Shown: positions 11,446 through 35,285 of the stretch, piece after piece
Numbering within the stretch: position 1 is the stretch's first letter
Layout of the letters: each line of letters begins with the position of its first letter
IMG/VR virus record: IMGVR_UViG_3300037231_000129
Location: 34,025-98,024 of that record
Reading direction: 5' to 3' (one strand)
Length of the DNA stretch: 64,000 nucleotides
Origin: a virus
Program-made: the position numbers and the translations under genes
Notes under the pieces: model-generated
Databases searched by the model: none
What the model was told of the DNA's origin: nothing
The model's input: the letters and a program-made list of their open reading frames with translations, nothing else

Positions 11446-11521
11446 TGGTGCCCAGGGATGGAATCGAACCACCGACTCCCGCGTTTTCGGCGCGGAGCTC
11501 TACCAACTGAGCTACCCGGGC
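11446..11521 (-). tRNA. tRNA-Phe(GAA)
   Basis: 76-nt cloverleaf GCCCGGG/CCTGGGC, D-arm GCTC/GAGC, anticodon loop CC-GAA-AA, TTCGATT T-loop, encoded CCA. Confidence 0.9.
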
Positions 11522-15984: not shown

Positions 15985-16260
15985 ATGACCATAGACCCCA
16001 ACCTCCTCCGACCTGGTCATCGTCTGCGGTTCACCCAATCGCTGGACGTCTTCACCCTGGACCACATCTTTCCCAAAGGTGCGGCGGGCACGATCGAAGA
16101 CGCCGAACTCGACGCCCTCCCGGGTCTGCCAATCCTGTATCTGCGCATGGATGACGTCTTTCCCTGCTTGAGCAGCTTCAAGAATGTTCTGCAGATCTTC
16201 CGGTCTAATGACCTGGGTGCGGAGGTGACCGACGCTGAATTCGAACCATGCGGCTTCTAA
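15985..16260 (+). CDS. hypothetical protein
   Basis: AAGGGA SD within motif B1. Confidence 0.65.
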   Translation: MTIDPNLLRPGHRLRFTQSLDVFTLDHIFPKGAAGTIEDAELDALPGLPILYLRMDDVFPCLSSFKNVLQIFRSNDLGAEVTDAEFEPCGF

Positions 16261-16297
16261 GCCGCCTGGTGCCAGGACACCCCTGGCTTGATAAGGA
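16240..16297 (+). ncRNA. hammerhead-like motif, type II, TTGATAA core (B2)
   Basis: TTC-GAA-CCA.GCGGCT/AGCCGC.TGG-T-GCCAGG/CCTGGC-TTGATAA-GGA. Confidence 0.6.
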
Positions 16298-16304
16298 CAT
16301 CCAC

Positions 16305-16910
16305 ATGTTACTCACCGACGACCAGGCCACACGCATCAACGGCCTTCTCCGTGCCACGCGGCCGTTCGCCAAATTGCCGGCGACGAACCAGCGACCCATG
16401 AACACCACGTGGCAAGCACTGAACGACACGTTGATGTCGATGCGGCTCCCCCTCTATCACAGATCCCTGCGCAAGCCGGTTCCCACGGAGAAGGTCTACG
16501 AGGCCGCCGTGCAGAATGGGCTTGCACTCCTCGGCGCGTTCGCGGCGACGCTTGGCACCAAACAGGCCATCGTCAGCAGCCGCGGCCGCTGGATCGACCG
16601 CATCAGCTTTCAGCCCCGTCCCGACGGGATGAACTGGAATGCGGCGCATGCCATCTCCCCGGAGTATCTGGTCCAAAAACGGGCCAGTGATCCGAACCAA
16701 GCTGTCTCGTTGGAGGATTTCCTGTTCATGGCCGCCAAGACTACCTACGTGGTAGCCCGGCGGTCCGCAGGCGCGATCCCCGACATTACCGCTACCTTCG
16801 CCTTCGACGTCGCCTCCGATGGTGCGCCGACGGTCGATGGGGTGGTGCGAGAACACGGCGCCCAGACGCATAACGCGAGCTTGCTGCCGCTTTCTCCTTT
16901 CCGCCTTTGA
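16305..16910 (+). CDS. hypothetical protein
   Basis: TAAGGA SD within motif B2; ATG 16305. Confidence 0.65.
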   Translation: MLLTDDQATRINGLLRATRPFAKLPATNQRPMNTTWQALNDTLMSMRLPLYHRSLRKPVPTEKVYEAAVQNGLALLGAFAATLGTKQAIVSSRGRWIDRISFQPRPDGMNWNAAHAISPEYLVQKRASDPNQAVSLEDFLFMAAKTTYVVARRSAGAIPDITATFAFDVASDGAPTVDGVVREHGAQTHNASLLPLSPFRL

Positions 16911-16965
16911 GAAAGGCGCGCCCTTCGGGGCCGCTTATCCATGCACATCATCATGGACTGAAGAC

Positions 16966-16994
16966 TTGATTTCCCGCCTGATCATTACCATATC
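16966..16994 (+). promoter_or_regulatory. putative sigma70-type promoter for the large ncRNA
   Basis: TTGATT-N17-CATATC in an AT-richer stretch just upstream of the structured region. Confidence 0.5.
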
Positions 16995-16999
16995 AGTTG

Positions 17000-17815
17000 G
17001 GTCATTAAAATCCGAATGATCTGGGCCCGGTTAGCGCCCTAGAGTGCGGCGCTTCTGCGCGGCTTGAGACGATCCTGGTGCGACGGTCGCACTTGCAATT
17101 TAGCAGGCGAGATGTTGAGGAAGACATCAATAGAGATTCCGCATCGTTGTGGTACTTGCAAGAACGCGGAAAAGGCCAATGCTCGACTGTAAGGCCAGTT
17201 GGGATTTGAGTACGGCAGCACTTGTAACCCTGCCCGAACACGGGGGCGCCACCCTCCAAGCCTAAACCTCTTCTATTTCGTCCAATGAGTATCGACCAAA
17301 ATGGCTCCGCTATAGTCCATCGGCATGCCGGTCATCCGGATTGATGCCAGTTAGAATGCGGTTCCGAGTGCCTGGGGTCTATGGCCCCCAGGCCGCCATG
17401 AGTAGTCGAGCCATCCGTAGTGGTAGAAGTTGGTTTGACTATGGAAATCAAACTGATGGAATTCACCGCGGAGATCCTATCCGGCAAGCCATTGGCGACC
17501 GCAAGGGCGCCGAGAATGCCGAGAGTTCATGCAGGCCCATGAGCAGGATAGGATCTGGTTTCCGTCGCATAACGCGGCGGGCTGAGAACTCGCCCGGGGC
17601 CTGGTCGCAATCCAGTAGCCAGAGCCCCCGGGCGGCAGAAACCAGATATCATTCCCATAGCATAGCGGTCCGAGTAGCTTAGTGCGCTCGACTGCTAAGG
17701 CCGGCAGCTTCTGCTGTGTTTCGAAAGGAACCCGCGTTGGGTGTGCGCGGCGGCCGGCATCTCACCCACCACCCAACTTCCCCCCTGACAGGACCCCCTG
17801 TCAGGGGGTTTTTTT
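17000..17815 (+). ncRNA. large (~800 nt) highly structured non-coding RNA, GOLLD/ROOL-like in size and style
   Basis: no credible ORF; many local hairpins, long-range 10-11 bp helices, GNRA loops and AGTA/GAA loop-E-like motifs; bounded by promoter and terminator. Confidence 0.75.
17781..17815 (+). terminator. intrinsic terminator
   Basis: CCCCCTGACAGG-accc-CCTGTCAGGGGG followed by T7. Confidence 0.9.
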
Positions 17816-18238
17816 GTGCCTTTGACGCCAGCTCGCCAGTCCGTGCAACGCGGCGCGGAGTAATGGCTGCTGGGTGGCCGTGGGCGGGTTTTCCCACACC
17901 ACGCAATTTACCAGCACATTCCAGGAATCCGGGCCGATCGCGTCGTAGGCATGCGCCAGCTGGTGCAACGCGGCTGCCTGCTCAGACGCGCGCGTTGCGT
18001 CTGCTTCAGTGAACGAGGAGCGGCTCAACCGCCCGCGGAGGTTGCCTGTCGTCGCCATTTCGCCAAACCAGGCGGCCGCGCCCAGCAGTTTGGCGACCTC
18101 GTCGCCCAGCTCGCCGGCGTGCGCCATCACCTCGAGCGGTGTGAGCATGCGGCCCGGAATGACGGTTTTCACGACCATCCGGCCATCTTTGATCGTGACG
18201 TCGGCGAATGCCGCCTTGACACGATGTTGATACGCCAT
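17801..18238 (-). CDS. DUF6456-like putative late-transcription regulator
   Basis: A...L..AYDAIG....VLVNCVVWE...LLRAALHGLA.W pattern resembles the GafA C-terminal family. Confidence 0.4.
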   Translation of the reverse strand: MAYQHRVKAAFADVTIKDGRMVVKTVIPGRMLTPLEVMAHAGELGDEVAKLLGAAAWFGEMATTGNLRGRLSRSSFTEADATRASEQAAALHQLAHAYDAIGPDSWNVLVNCVVWENPPTATQQPLLRAALHGLASWRQRHKKTP

Positions 18239-20520: not shown

Positions 20521-21286
20521 ATTGCACCTCCCTGGTGATCGGGAATGTCTGCCACCGCTGGAGCGTCACATGCTCGGGCGGCGCGGTGCGGCCGCGCCCA
20601 GCCGGCGGCAGGGGCCACCCTTCATCGGTGCAGCCGATACAGTACCACCGCGTCTTGCGCCGCTTGCGCGCGGTGCGGAACCACGCAAGCCAGTCGTCGA
20701 AATCGCTGACCTCCGCATCAGTCAGCGGGCCGGTAGCGACAACGATATCGGTGCAGTGGGTGTTTTTCGAGGCCACCCCAGCGAGAGTGGCCGCGTTTAC
20801 CACCAAGTTCCACATATTGGGGCCACTGGCCCGCCAAACCTGCACGTGGCCACGATCTGGCATCATCACCGGATAGAGGCTGACGATCATCAGGCCGCCG
20901 TAGCCCAGCCGATAACTCCACCGAATCATACGCTTGACCGCCAAATTACTGACGTCAGCGGTCGACGGGTCGGCGTTGTAGGTAACCCAGCAAAGCTTCG
21001 GACCTGACCCCCAGGTATGGATCAACAGCTCGCGCCAGCGGGTCATATCGCTATCGTCCCAGCGTGGCTCCTCGTTGTCGTCACGCCACCGTCTCATGCC
21101 ACCACCATGAAATACCACGTGGCGCATCACTGGCTTGACCGGCCTATCGCGAGAACGAACCACGGGCGGCAACGTCACGCCGCTGCGTTTCAGCATTTCC
21201 TCGATGTCAACGATCGCGTCCATGCCGCCTCCTGCCACGGATGTGTCCATGATCATAGACCAAAAATCCGGATGGTCCAGCCTCAA
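20474..21286 (-). CDS. DUF1643-like protein
   Basis: R..L...WG.GP..CWV..N.DPSTAD..KR....GYGGLMIVSLYP. Confidence 0.7.
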   Translation of the reverse strand: MRLDHPDFWSMIMDTSVAGGGMDAIVDIEEMLKRSGVTLPPVVRSRDRPVKPVMRHVVFHGGGMRRWRDDNEEPRWDDSDMTRWRELLIHTWGSGPKLCWVTYNADPSTADVSNLAVKRMIRWSYRLGYGGLMIVSLYPVMMPDRGHVQVWRASGPNMWNLVVNAATLAGVASKNTHCTDIVVATGPLTDAEVSDFDDWLAWFRTARKRRKTRWYCIGCTDEGWPLPPAGRGRTAPPEHVTLQRWQTFPITREVQYGTAKSGGDPADTIS

Positions 21287-23214
21287 TCATCGTAGCGATC
21301 CTGCCATGACTGCCCCACCGGCTCGCGGAGAGCGTCAACCGACACCAGCTGCGGCGTGATCCGGGTATTGCTGAGGTTGTAGCGCATCATCGTGTCGCCC
21401 ACGGTCACGTAGTAAGACTCCTTTGACTTCCAGCTTCGCACCAGCATGTCGGAGTTTTCAAAGTTCGGGCGATGAATTGTCAGGCCGAAATCGCAGCGCG
21501 AATAGAAATTCTGTCCCCCACCGATGTCGTAACCGACGGGCACCGGATAACTGCCATCCTTGTTTTTCTCGCGCATGGTATGCGGGTGCACGATCAATAC
21601 GATATTAGTGCGAAGCTCTACCGCGAGCCCGACGCAGCCTTGCAAGACAACGCCCAGCCAATCGGTTTGCGTCTTGCGCCAGCCCTGTGGCATTTCGTCG
21701 TCGATTTCCTGCCACGGATCCCAGATTACCAGCTTGGCCCCGGTGCGCTTCACCGCTGAGCGTGTTGTTTCTTTCAACCAGGTGAGCGGGGCCGGTTTGC
21801 CGCGTTCCGGCCATGCGATGAAGCTCCAATATTTGTGGACCCATTCCTGATTGGTCATCAACGCGGTGGCGCGATCCATACGCTCGAGATGGGCATTGCT
21901 GAAAAATGGCTGTTGGGTGCGTTGGGAAATCAAATCGACGCTGACGCGTTTGTTGCTGACCTCGGCCGAGAACATGATCGTGTGAAACGGCCGGGCGAAT
22001 TGATTGACCTGCATCTGATCAATCGCATGTTCGGTCACCATGGTGCTGTAGGCTGTCCAGAATGCCGATTTGCCATGGCCTGGAATCCCCGTAGTGACCC
22101 AAAAACGTCCGTCGTCCGCCAGACTTATCCGTTGATCCAACGCCGCAACCCCGGTGATGAACCGCCCGCGTCCGATCCCGTCGTAGAGATTGCCGACTTC
22201 CTCGTCGGTGACGACTTCGATGCCCTCAAGCGGGTAAGGCTCGGCATGGTCGATCGCGAACCGCACGGCGTCACGGCCACGCTTGGACAAGGTATCCTTG
22301 GCGTCCTTGCAGCCTTCGGGCCAGCGGACCAGCCAACAGCGCTCCTTGCCCAGCCGGCGGGCGATCTCCTCGTGATGATTGGATCCGGCCAAATCCATGT
22401 CACCAGCGAGAATGATCTGCTTGAGGCGCTTCAGCTTTTGGTTGCTATGGAGGCAAATATACCTCTGATCGTCATCCGTGACCGGATCGTAGACCTTCGA
22501 CAGCTTCGCCGGGCTGCCGTCTGGCAAACTCGTGGTCTGGCGAAAGCCGGCCTCGACGCATGCCGCAACGTCGTCCTCGCCCTCCACGATGATACCGGTT
22601 TCATCGCTGACGAAGCTGTCGACATTGTAGAGCGATTGCTCGGCGTCCGGTTCCTGGCTGAACCGCTTCACCCCGCTGCTGTACACCGCCTTGTATTTGA
22701 CGTTCAGCAACGCGCCATCTTCGCGGTAGGGATAGGCGATCACCGGGCGCATGCGGCCGGCGCCGTCGATCTGCTTGCCGGCCTTGTCGATCGCCGGCAT
22801 GAAGCGCTGGCTCCGGTAGATGCCGAGCATCTGCACGGTAGCCTCGGAGATCCCGAACTTCGCGAACCAGGTCAGCAGCGATGCCGGGCGATCGATATCT
22901 TCCGGTGGTACCGGCCGCCGATAGACCTTCGGGGCCTGCTGGCGGCGCGGTGGTGATCCGGAGAGCCGGCGGCCGCCGGTGATGCCGCAGTTGTTCGCCC
23001 GGTGGCATACCCAGGTGAAGCCCTGCCCATCATCGTCGATCCGGACGTAGAAATTCTTCTCCCGCTGCTTGCCACCACCGCATTCGGGGCAGAACAGCTT
23101 GGAGCGACCACCGCCGTGGTTCTTGCCGGGTCGCGGCGCTTCGTGAAGCTCGATCCGCTCATCGTCGAGTAGCTCCTGCAGCGTTTCGCACGGCTGCTCG
23201 CCCTTCCGCGCCAC
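21283..23214 (-). CDS. bifunctional DNA primase-helicase (T7 gp4/Twinkle-like)
   Basis: CPECGG zinc-binding domain, TOPRIM IVEGEDD and DMD, CKDAKD, TGIPGHGKS Walker A, IWDPW, IVHP. Confidence 0.92.
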   Translation of the reverse strand: MARKGEQPCETLQELLDDERIELHEAPRPGKNHGGGRSKLFCPECGGGKQREKNFYVRIDDDGQGFTWVCHRANNCGITGGRRLSGSPPRRQQAPKVYRRPVPPEDIDRPASLLTWFAKFGISEATVQMLGIYRSQRFMPAIDKAGKQIDGAGRMRPVIAYPYREDGALLNVKYKAVYSSGVKRFSQEPDAEQSLYNVDSFVSDETGIIVEGEDDVAACVEAGFRQTTSLPDGSPAKLSKVYDPVTDDDQRYICLHSNQKLKRLKQIILAGDMDLAGSNHHEEIARRLGKERCWLVRWPEGCKDAKDTLSKRGRDAVRFAIDHAEPYPLEGIEVVTDEEVGNLYDGIGRGRFITGVAALDQRISLADDGRFWVTTGIPGHGKSAFWTAYSTMVTEHAIDQMQVNQFARPFHTIMFSAEVSNKRVSVDLISQRTQQPFFSNAHLERMDRATALMTNQEWVHKYWSFIAWPERGKPAPLTWLKETTRSAVKRTGAKLVIWDPWQEIDDEMPQGWRKTQTDWLGVVLQGCVGLAVELRTNIVLIVHPHTMREKNKDGSYPVPVGYDIGGGQNFYSRCDFGLTIHRPNFENSDMLVRSWKSKESYYVTVGDTMMRYNLSNTRITPQLVSVDALREPVGQSWQDRYDD

Positions 23215-24905: not shown

Positions 24906-25376
24906 AATCGATTTGCGACGCGGCGTGAAACTGAAACGAGGGCTTGCAGCCCAGACATATAACCACTAATTTGCCAGACGAGGTCATGGCAGACCAGGTG
25001 CTTCAACGCGGACGAGGGCCCGCGAAGTGTCTGAGCGTCGAATCCGTCGCCACGGTTTCCCGCTTCGTCAGTCAAGTCAGGGGCGGTCGGGTTAGCTGGC
25101 CGACCGCCCCACCTCTTCATCAAACTCCAGACTGTAATCAGCGAGTCCCAATCACGCAATATCCATGATTCCAGCTGCGACACATTTGCTGTATTTTCAA
25201 TACCTAAACGATTCCAGTCGCTTGATCGCCAGAGTCGGCATCACCATATCTATTGGGCAATAACCACACGCAAAAATTTACCACCGGGACTCGGTTTTTT
25301 GTGCCGATCCATAGAACGGCCGGTCTGCATGCACGCATGCGAATCGTCTGTGTTCCCGTTTTGAACGTGGTTTTCA

Positions 25377-33779: not shown

Positions 33780-34130
33780 GACAAGCCCCTACGTTTTCAA
33801 CGTGGGGGCTTTTCCTCTTGCGCGATCGGTGTTTATATGGTCCATGATAGTGTGATAAAACTGGAACCCGGGGGAAAGCTGCCCATGTTAGGGAGTGGCC
33901 ACGCAAGGCTCTTGGAGGTTGTCATGGCCGGTAAGACCCGCAAGACAGCCGGGAGGGAAGAGTATCGCAAGGCTCGACGCGATCTGGCGAGCAGCATGTT
34001 TGAGCCGCTGCTGCTGGCTCTCGTCCTCTACCTGCTAGCGCGGTGGCTTTTCTCCGCGGTTTTCTAGGCGCCGTCTTCCGTCCGGAAGGCGGCGTTTGCG
34101 TATGAGCTGTCTGCAACGAGGAGATTGTCG

Positions 34131-35285
34131 ATGAGCGATCACGGAATTCCGTCCGGCTATAACGACCGCCACGACGTCGCCACGCGCGATCCCGAGATTC
34201 TTCGCCCCAAACCGGCCAGCTTGGTCTCGGTCAGCCCGGAGCTGGTCCAGGAGATCATCCGCAAGCTGACCGAGGGCGGCGCGGACGCGACGATCGTCAA
34301 GGCGATGATGGCCGCGTTGAACGCCGCCGGCGGCCAGTCCGAGCCGCTGCCGATCATGACCAACCCGGAGCTCGTCGCCAAAGCGATCATCGGTGTGATG
34401 GGGAAGGTCAAGGAAGTTGCGAAGAGCGGATACAACAAGGAAGGCAAGTACGGCTACGTCTACTTCGGTGATGTTAGAGCGTTGTTACAAGACGCTTTTG
34501 TCTCGGTCGGGCTTACCCTCAACCAACGGCAGGTCGGTAATCCCCGCGTCGTCGGCAAGACGTTGATGATCAAATACACCTTCGACGCTTTCACAGCGGA
34601 CGGCGGCATTATTCTCGGGATAACGACCACGACAGGCGCCTGTCGTTTCGAGTTCAAGAGCGGCACTTTTGACGACAAAGCGCCGAACAAGGCCTTCACG
34701 GCGGGTGAAAAATCGGCCATGACGGCGCTGTTCAAGATCGCGCCGGACGATAATCAAAGCGAACGAACCCTCGACGCGGATCCCGACACGCAAGGCATGT
34801 ATGACGAAGAGCCGGCCGAGCGTACCAACTTTCGCGGTCCGGATGATCGAGGTCGTGATCGTGGTCGTGATGAGCCCCGGCGGGGGGGCGATCGCCCGCG
34901 CGATGAACCGCGTGATCGCGGCCGGCGCGACGACCCACCGCGGGATGACCCGCCTCGAGGTGGCTACGATAATCGCGACGATCCGCCGAGCGATCGGGGT
35001 CGTGGCAGTCCCGATCGCGGCCGAGGCGGCGGCAACGCCGATGAACCGCCGGACGGACGATGGGATGACGGCCCTCGCGAGCCGCCGCCGTCCGACGTCA
35101 CCGCCGGCCACCGCGACCTGGTAACCGATTTCCAGCGCAAGCAGGATGCCTGCAGCTCGGAGGAGGATGCCGCCGCCTTGTGGCGGGATGATGCCGCATT
35201 GCTCACCGAGACGAACGACCGGACCTACACTCACCTGGTCGACACATACGAAAAACGGTGGGGCATTCGCCCGCCGGCAATCTAG
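34131..35285 (+). CDS. ERF-family single-strand annealing protein with R/D/P-rich tail
   Basis: KSGYN...YGYV..GDV...GL...DDKAPNKAFT..K..LF.I..DD..D.D; next to ssb. Confidence 0.8.
   Translation: MSDHGIPSGYNDRHDVATRDPEILRPKPASLVSVSPELVQEIIRKLTEGGADATIVKAMMAALNAAGGQSEPLPIMTNPELVAKAIIGVMGKVKEVAKSGYNKEGKYGYVYFGDVRALLQDAFVSVGLTLNQRQVGNPRVVGKTLMIKYTFDAFTADGGIILGITTTTGACRFEFKSGTFDDKAPNKAFTAGEKSAMTALFKIAPDDNQSERTLDADPDTQGMYDEEPAERTNFRGPDDRGRDRGRDEPRRGGDRPRDEPRDRGRRDDPPRDDPPRGGYDNRDDPPSDRGRGSPDRGRGGGNADEPPDGRWDDGPREPPPSDVTAGHRDLVTDFQRKQDACSSEEDAAALWRDDAALLTETNDRTYTHLVDTYEKRWGIRPPAI

Follow-up and report, generated by a model that had tools for sequence, protein, structure and literature searches.

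What is encoded in a gap of a large phage genome in which no credible gene can be read? The gap in question spans 16911-17800 of the stretch of DNA analyzed here (the window: 64,000 nt, bases 34025-98024 of the 98,024-bp IMG/VR record IMGVR_UViG_3300037231_000129, CheckV completeness 96%). An earlier inspection of the letters alone (the sequence-only reading) had proposed that it holds a large structured non-coding RNA (ncRNA) with its own promoter and terminator, either GOLLD-like or of a new class. The results below support an RNA of this kind in a phage. We consider it probable that the locus is a stand-alone gene for a highly structured, trans-acting ncRNA of ~815 nt, which belongs to a new modular family and carries a domain derived from 23S ribosomal RNA (rRNA).

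The absence of a gene between 16910 and 17801, claimed by the sequence-only reading, is borne out. The spread of G+C content (GC) between codon positions is 0.02-0.18 in 16911-17800 versus 0.3-0.4 in both flanking genes, indicating no codon periodicity, and the open reading frames (ORFs) inside the gap are only short, random ones. Five relatives of the window phage (G000) were found in IMG/VR through their terminases (G001-G005; contigs of 91-107 kb, TerL 48-60% identical). All six phages have a common layout. A plus strand gene is followed by 600-2,000 nt in which no gene is credible, and beyond these lies, in convergent orientation, a homologue of the 145-amino acid (aa) DUF6456-like protein that is encoded next to the gap in the window. 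When six-frame peptides of the RNAs are compared, their mutual matches are confined to short blocks, found simultaneously in several frames of both strands and therefore not consistent in frame. Such matches are best read as conservation of nucleotides, not of protein. Indeed, conservation among the homologous loci is of the base-pair rather than the codon type.

At the start of the gap, a promoter is present in six out of six phages: C-TTGA, 17 variable bases and CCAT(A/C)T, the spacing being invariant. The sequence-only reading had placed a promoter here as TTGATT-N17-CATATC; the promoter stands, but its hexamers are better read as CTTGAT-N17-CCATAT (Table 1). A generic scan with the Escherichia coli consensus did not list it. 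The alphaproteobacterial consensus is CTTGAC-N17-CTATAT, and the element fits it as a sigma-70-type promoter. The RNA would start at about 16999-17001. In G002 (L057:2373-2425) and G003 (L058:2090-2145) the promoter lies within an inverted repeat whose arms, 14-17 bp long, begin at the -35 hexamer and extend to about +20. For the window (16976-17022), the inverted-repeat arms TGATCATT and AATGATC flank the -10 hexamer. The repeat could serve a repressor as operator, or fold into a hairpin at the 5' end of the RNA. Elsewhere in the window, at 25221-25249 (+), CTTGAT-N17-CCATAT recurs exactly, before the second plus strand array of small genes.

At the other end, the terminator proposed earlier (12 bp and T7) is confirmed. 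The convergent gene ends inside it: the hairpin takes in the final 8 nt of that gene, stop codon included. Strong intrinsic terminators are found 430-760 nt past the promoter in G001, G002, G003 and G005. The conserved promoter, the terminators, the synteny, the folding energies (below) and the nucleotide type of conservation together indicate that the locus is a conserved non-coding transcription unit.

The window RNA folds better than its shuffled controls: the minimum free energy (MFE) compared with dinucleotide shuffles gives a z of -5.9 on the plus strand and -3.8 on the minus strand. The corresponding z is -7.4 in G001, -9.3 in G002 and -5.7 in G003; all four RNAs folded (G000-G003) are thus 5.7-9.3 standard deviations (SD) better than shuffles. 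Collinear motifs connect the window RNA with those of G001-G003, and within them a core, a five-helix junction (P2-P6 in Table 1), can be aligned. After the core had been defined by hand, a covariance model (R1) was built from G001-G003. Its top match in 0.93 Mb of viral DNA is 17292-17410 of the window (E 2e-4 in a small search). In the four-row alignment, 91.3% of cells form standard pairs and 12 of the 33 pairs have changed on both sides; none of 500 shuffles matches the core in percent paired, in pairs and cells changed on both sides or in covariation score, and one in 500 equals it in the count of further pair types, figures that are indicative only, since they come from four sequences in an alignment fitted to the model. 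When the partners are slid by 1-3 columns, pairing falls to 25-43%. P6 illustrates the pattern: its stem is fully different in each phage and its 8-nt loop stays YYUWUGGC. Maintenance of the core helices by compensatory changes is thus strongly supported by the comparison.

Outside the core, whole-length MAFFT alignments of the RNAs are unreliable. G001 has a second domain (L056:1137-1224, -), made of a long closing helix P7, a hairpin H8 and a hairpin H9 with the loop CCUUAGCC. This domain scores 18.8 bits against R1, which suggests that the RNA grew by internal domain duplication. For the P7/H8/H9 domain of G001-G003, MAFFT placed the H8 strands in inconsistent columns. A candidate contact joins the P6 loop, AUGGC, to a downstream GCCAU (17381-17385/17489-17493). 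In G002 the P6 loop has UUGGC and a GCCAA follows 3' of H9, an exchange of A-U for U-A; the scheme does not hold in G001. A loop contact or a pseudoknot at this place is possible.

The local hairpins proposed by the sequence-only reading, and one of its longer-range helices, are recovered in the MFE and centroid folds: the hairpin GCCTGGGG/CCCCAGGC (17370-17393), which is also conserved as P6, the hairpins GTTGGTTTGA/TCAAACTGAT and CGCCCGGGG/CCCCGGGCG, and the 11-bp helix AGATCCTATCC/GGATAGGATCT (17472/17546). The 10-bp helix ATCTGGTTTC/GAAACCAGAT (17553/17638) is present in one MFE fold, whereas different pairs take its place in another. The other long-range pairings are not confirmed. CCGCTAT 17307/ATAGCGG 17662 competes with P3, where CCGC 17307 pairs with GCGG 17358; AGTAGTCGAGC 17401/GCTCGACTGCT 17686 competes with P2, where GTCGA 17405 pairs with TCGAC 17292; and in AGTTGGG 17197/CCCAACT 17772, the 17197 strand sits in a local hairpin of module A, described next. 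Overall, about half of the long-range helices conflict with the conserved core, and the pseudoknots inferred from their crossing depend on the helices that conflict with P2 and P3 and are probably wrong.

Module A, which the sequence-only reading missed together with the modularity of the RNA, is a miniature of domain I of 23S rRNA. In a small-window Rfam search with Infernal, 17090-17266 aligns to positions 185-470 of the bacterial large subunit (LSU) rRNA model (LSU_rRNA_bacteria, RF02541), 112 of them deleted, with 25.4 bits and E 2.9e-6; in a 4.5-kb search the E value is 6.2e-5. Larger Rfam searches did not report the match, a silence that is taken to be a filter effect. As an LSU rRNA gene proper the module was rejected: its 25.4 bits compare with a gathering score of 50 bits, it covers ~170 of 2,900 nt, and a genome-wide search with the LSU family was empty. 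In rRNA terms, helices 12 and 13 (H12/H13) and H21/H22 are kept, and H14-H20, the 112 deleted model positions, are replaced by a 22-nt hairpin. Also kept are the junction GAGGAA..GAGAUUCC, the block AAGCCUAAA and the long-range pairing of AGGC 17173-17176 with GCCT 17260-17263, in which one pair is swapped from c-g to G-C. The H21-like loop CACUUGUAAC is near the rRNA loop CACGUGAAAC, and the tip of H13 is remodelled. In near-identical phage contigs from two other metagenomes, position 17145 in the H13-like hairpin is A instead of C, which is closer to rRNA (UAGU).

Direct comparison with real 23S rRNAs gives the same picture. By blastn, Sphingobium matches in two blocks, 82% over 67 nt (E 5e-12) and 76% over 62 nt (E 1e-5); identity is 82% over 60 nt for Azospirillum, 77% for Ensifer, 75% for Burkholderia and 74% for E. 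coli. The E. coli match corresponds to nt 369-430 of its 23S rRNA; the first block is weak there, 20 nt at nt 218-237 (E 3.4). Module A bears GACAUCAA, a signature of Alphaproteobacteria. An eight-row alignment and its consensus fold have H13, H21 and H22 in common between phage RNAs and rRNAs. The region had also drawn attention in the metagenomes: in four of four runs, very deep short contigs of ~80-85% identity were stacked on exactly 17219-17265, which pointed to a highly conserved cellular RNA. Module A is nevertheless not an assembly chimera, since a contig of 360 nt that comes from a separate, independent study of soil covers 17002-17361, including both borders of the module, with one difference. 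Significant similarity to 23S rRNA thus goes together with retention of the rRNA helices, and descent of module A from domain I of a host 23S rRNA, which it would still fold like, is strongly supported by sequence and predicted structure.

The likeness is confined to this module. When 200-nt tiles of all six RNAs were run against Rfam, the LSU match appeared only at 17090-17266 of the window, and blastn of the six RNAs against the whole rrn loci of five bacteria returned module A only. A blastn search against E. coli genomes gave no match. A 5' motif, CCCGTYAGTG..CGAT, was considered as a likeness of the 23S 5' end and dropped as not significant.

How the module changed can be followed in the relatives. 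A closing helix that is absent from rRNA is formed by GAGG 17117-17120 and CCTC 17267-17270 in the window, by GGAGGG and CCCUCC in G005, and by CGAGGG and CCCUCG in G003. The window and G005 share an exact 22-mer (17119-17140), a second block (17228-17268), derived changes and identical boundaries of the deletion. The last two argue that the mini-domain arose once, its stems apparently having evolved since by compensatory change. The module is vestigial in G003 and is absent from G001 and G002, and is therefore an accessory domain rather than the essence of the family. As read from the six loci, the family is modular, its members holding different subsets of modules.

Table 1. Features of the RNA locus and its neighbors (window coordinates)
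Feature	Position	Strand	Basis or remarks
Upstream syntenic gene, 220 aa, no known family	16248-16910	+	DNA-level homologues 5' of the RNA in G001-G003
Promoter	16965-16993	+	-35 CTTGAT 16965-16970, 17-nt spacer, -10 CCATAT 16988-16993; exact pattern match
ncRNA, ~815 nt (probable)	17000-17815	+	No codon periodicity, MFE z -5.9, conserved promoter and terminator, homologous units in G001-G005
Module A, mini 23S domain I	17090-17270	+	Infernal, blastn, alignment with five real 23S rRNAs
H13-like hairpin, TTCCGC ... GCGGAA	17137-17171	+	LSU model alignment; pairs kept in phage and 23S rows
H21-like hairpin, GGCAG 17214-17218/CTGCC 17230-17234	17208-17239	+	GAGUA and GAAC flanks as in rRNA
H22-like hairpin, GGGGG/CCCTCC, then conserved AAGCCTAAA	17242-17266	+	LSU structure line, alignment, exact block with G005
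Conserved core, five-helix junction	17292-17410	+	R1 match and pair counts
P2, long closing helix	17292-17296/17405-17409 plus 17301-17305/17395-17399	+	Core
P3	17307-17310/17358-17361	+	Core
P4, GGCA/TGCC invariant, encloses variable P5	17322-17325/17345-17348	+	Core
P5, variable hairpin	17328-17331/17336-17339	+	Core
AGTYA (AGUYA), conserved single strand	17349-17353	+	Core
P6	17370-17377/17386-17393	+	Conserved loop TCTATGGC
3' half, lineage-specific helices	17420-17780	+	MFE and centroid folds, prediction only
3'-half hairpins	17431-17468; 17593-17635; several in 17660-17760	+	Predicted
Three-way junction of the 3' half, closing helix	17472-17482/17546-17556	+	Predicted
Intrinsic terminator	17781-17815	+	12-bp stem (9 G-C) and 4-nt loop (17781-17808), T7 run
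Downstream convergent gene, 145 aa	17801-18238	-	Weak DUF6456 similarity, Pfam E 1.3e-3, below cut-off; homologues adjoin the RNA locus in G001-G005

The presence of an rRNA domain in the RNA bears on what it may do. The tips of H13 and H21 join the base of H88 to form a pocket at the E site of the 50S subunit; bL35 contacts H13 and H88, and bL28 belongs to the same E site (PMC13372681). H21 and H22 reach their mature shape in an assembly state that holds uL2 and bL28 (PMC9935924). This placement at the pocket, and the link of maturation to uL2 and bL28, make it plausible that a free-standing copy of H13, H21 and H22 serves as bait, be it for bL28, for bL35 or for a factor of late 50S assembly, or as a module for docking onto immature subunits. 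The resemblance suggests that the phage RNA imitates a piece of the ribosome. The RNA would be made during infection and act in trans, as a scaffold or a decoy. Module A would present the H13/H21 surface, which in the ribosome lies at the 50S E site by bL28 and bL35, and would capture a ribosomal protein or a biogenesis factor, or dock on assembling subunits; the conserved core may carry the primary activity of the family. We hold the decoy or scaffold reading tentatively, and no more firmly than that because some relatives lack module A or keep it in decayed form, and because the role of the core is obscure. The specific version, in which module A soaks up bL28, bL35 or a late assembly factor, so that host ribosome biogenesis is stalled or re-routed, or else tethers the large RNA to ribosomes, is doubtful.

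There are precedents for parts of this scheme. The mRNA leaders of ribosomal proteins (L1, L10, L20, S8 and S15 autoregulation) mimic the protein-binding sites of rRNA, and the phage RNA resembles them in being an RNA element that copies the shape of an rRNA site outside the ribosome. However, these leaders act in cis as 5' leaders of host ribosomal protein operons and are convergent or minimal in size, whereas the phage RNA would be encoded in trans, has no downstream gene and is a true sequence homologue of rRNA. We know of no such leader that mimics H13, H21 or H22. The candidate that the locus is itself a ribosomal protein leader was rejected, as the terminator ends the RNA and no plus strand gene follows. 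Phages also touch translation through tRNAs, tmRNA, phage-encoded ribosomal proteins and ribosome-binding proteins, and the RNA is like these in that a phage expresses something that copies, or binds, part of the translation apparatus; to our knowledge, none of those described is an rRNA sub-domain. Relative to 23S domain I itself, to which 17090-17266 aligns in sequence and structure (H11-H13, H21-H22), module A differs in the swap of H14-H20 (~90-110 nt) for the 22-nt hairpin, in its new closing helix and in the unrelated RNA around it. A full-text literature search for phage RNAs mimicking 23S rRNA, or for rRNA-like fragments in phage genomes, found nothing of the sort among the top-ranked papers.

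Several observations weigh against the reading of the locus as a gene for a trans-acting RNA that mimics rRNA. No run among the holders of the sequence is on record as RNA, and we infer the transcript, its ends and its abundance from the DNA. The family consists of six loci, all metagenomic, with the core common to four and module A to three, and to this is added the indicative nature of the core statistics. The 3' half, 17420-17780, has no alignable homologue and is thus without comparative support. The module A of G005 and that of G003 have no LSU match by Infernal, and so degraded a state speaks against rRNA mimicry being under strict selection throughout the clade. The choice of bL28 and bL35 as partners is a leading guess, resting on the position of the helices in the ribosome. 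A further lead is that L28 is reported to cross-link to nt 195-242 and 368-424 of 23S rRNA (Osswald et al. 1990).

A different use of the same RNA would be as an architectural particle made of RNA only, as in ROOL, GOLLD and OLE, in which multimers form by loop-loop contacts and the rRNA-like piece is a borrowed brick. The three known RNAs form homo-oligomers (PMC12286853). The phage RNA is like them in its 600-800 nt class, its many helices and junctions, its phage or prophage location, its own transcription signals, its variable peripheral domains and in that its function is not readable from sequence. The size, the phage origin, the promoter, the ornate modular fold and the extreme folding z would all suit a particle, and the conserved 8-nt loops, with palindromic or near-palindromic GGCC/UGGC (YYUWUGGC in P6; CCUUGGCC in H9 of G002 and G003), could kiss. 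But these loop contacts are mere leads, and no sequence or structure match connects the RNA to ROOL, GOLLD or OLE. GOLLD (RF01998) and ROOL (RF03087) give no match at the gathering threshold, nor at E <= 10, with 1.3 kb or with 200-nt tiles as query. Within 16700-18000, OLE, HEARO, raiA, RNase P, tmRNA, group I and II introns, hammerhead and other ribozymes are likewise not matched (Rfam 15, E <= 10). Apart from the LSU match, the sole Rfam matches in this interval fall on a terminator-like hairpin (SNORA77, anti-hemB, sodF), all far below threshold, and the window as a whole has no hammerhead by Rfam at the gathering threshold. The GOLLD-like option of the sequence-only reading thus finds no backing, and with no Rfam family at threshold its other option, a new class of large RNA, is the one upheld. 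Unlike GOLLD, ROOL and OLE, which come from Lactobacillales, rumen and extremophile sources, the RNA is from a high-GC phage of alphaproteobacterial type, has other conserved motifs and an rRNA-derived domain, and has no flanking or embedded tRNAs. We regard the particle as unlikely. As far as the sequences go, the RNA represents a new family of large ncRNAs of phages, one that is built from modules and includes a domain derived from rRNA.

The locus might instead be a replication origin, the RNA serving as primer or activator (in the manner of ColE1 RNA II or of transcriptional activation of an origin) and its structure serving an RNA-DNA hybrid. The locus is in the early/replication part of the genome, which also encodes a primase-helicase (21283-23214) and an ERF recombinase (34125-35285), long degenerate repeats of short period come right after the terminator in G003 and G002, and in these two phages the promoter is within an inverted repeat. 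However, neither the window nor G001 nor G005 has the repeats, a strong terminator ends the RNA, and multi-helix junctions and an rRNA-like domain are unexpected in a primer RNA. Nor is there an AT-rich unwinding element, the regional GC being 0.53-0.62. An origin is therefore improbable.

That the locus is functionless debris, made up of a piece captured from an rrn operon of the host and of decaying intergenic DNA, transcribed or not, we find very improbable, for all that module A is clearly derived from rRNA, is degraded in G005 and G003 and absent in G001 and G002, and that the family is very rare. Decay does not account for a promoter and a terminator kept across phages whose terminases are only 48-60% identical, for compensatory changes that preserve the core helices and the H13, H21 and H22 stems, or for four independent sequences that fold well beyond their shuffles. 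The same H14-H20 deletion boundaries are, moreover, found in the window and G005, and a new closing helix has evolved. Regulation in cis or by antisense, with the RNA as the long 3' untranslated region of the upstream array or as a convergent transcript controlling the DUF6456-like gene by terminator overlap, hardly merits credence: the arrangement is convergent in all relatives and the hairpin reaches into the convergent gene of the window, but the overlap is just a few bases, ~800 nt of ornate conserved structure with a dedicated promoter would be superfluous for it, and in the relatives the terminator is 350-550 nt away from the DUF6456-like gene (G002 and G003) or separated from it by an extra gene (G005).

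In G003 (L058:852-1384), the space between terminator and DUF6456-like gene holds ~500 nt of a degenerate pentanucleotide repeat, (GGCAN)n on the plus strand of the locus; G002 carries a shorter tract of this type and the window is without it. The tracts could be iterons or a protein-binding array. In G004 (L059, reverse strand, oriented 1690-2180), a ~30-nt element ending in ..CCCGCCGGACTGAGGAGA occurs in three copies, each directly before a small ORF. The 145-aa neighbor itself gave nothing useful against PHROGs and Pfam; its AlphaFold model has a predicted local distance difference test score (pLDDT) of 75, and Foldseek finds nothing in the PDB that matches it at E <= 0.001.

Six phage contigs in total make up the family, which is thus very rare in the collections open to search. 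Blastn of the RNA against 50,697 GenBank phages gave no match, and five further TerL relatives have no homologue of the RNA. Scans of IMG/VR with single neighbor proteins gave nothing new, a three-row protein alignment retrieved known relatives only, and a metagenome scan with the neighbor protein retrieved none. A profile search of 5.8 billion proteins with the neighbor family returned five proteins, two of them, on contigs of 0.8-1.3 kb, being closer relatives of the neighbor gene. At the DNA level, the exact 22-mer pattern and the mini-domain (module A) pattern each retrieved G005 only. The core pattern had 98 matches in IMG/VR, of which those real by the covariance model were the known phages only; with a stricter core pattern, metagenome and genome collections yielded five new places, none of which was confirmed.

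The window phage is a siphovirus with a 98-kb genome of GC ~60%, for which a peat metagenome is the best holder of the DNA. Its genes include, besides the terminase, those for the Toprim/DnaB-like primase-helicase and the ERF recombinase named above, and its tail module is of the gene transfer agent (GTA) type (Phage-tail_3/Rcc01698_C, phiJL001 Gp84 hub, BR0599, tube). A tRNA-Phe (GAA) is at 11446-11521 (-), on which ARAGORN and Rfam agree. The terminase is ~40% identical to terminases of Rhizobium phages, which together with the GC of ~60% makes the host probably an alphaproteobacterium. The family is so far seen only in a small clade of soil and peat siphoviruses of 90-107 kb with GTA-type tails, whose hosts are probably Alphaproteobacteria.

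Few large structured RNAs without known function exist, and so far every class added to them has revealed unfamiliar biology or architecture, the cages of ROOL and GOLLD being examples. In the present RNA, a recognizable miniature of a defined part of the ribosome makes function a testable question. If the decoy reading is true, the RNA would be the first virus-encoded decoy of an rRNA domain, built on a new class of ornate RNA. Should bL28, bL35 or the pre-50S particle be bound, ribosome mimicry at the level of RNA would join the strategies by which phages take over their hosts, and the module would be a natural case of an rRNA sub-domain folding autonomously outside the ribosome. If nothing ribosomal is bound, the family would still offer a clean example of an ornate RNA that grows by capturing modules of cellular RNA.

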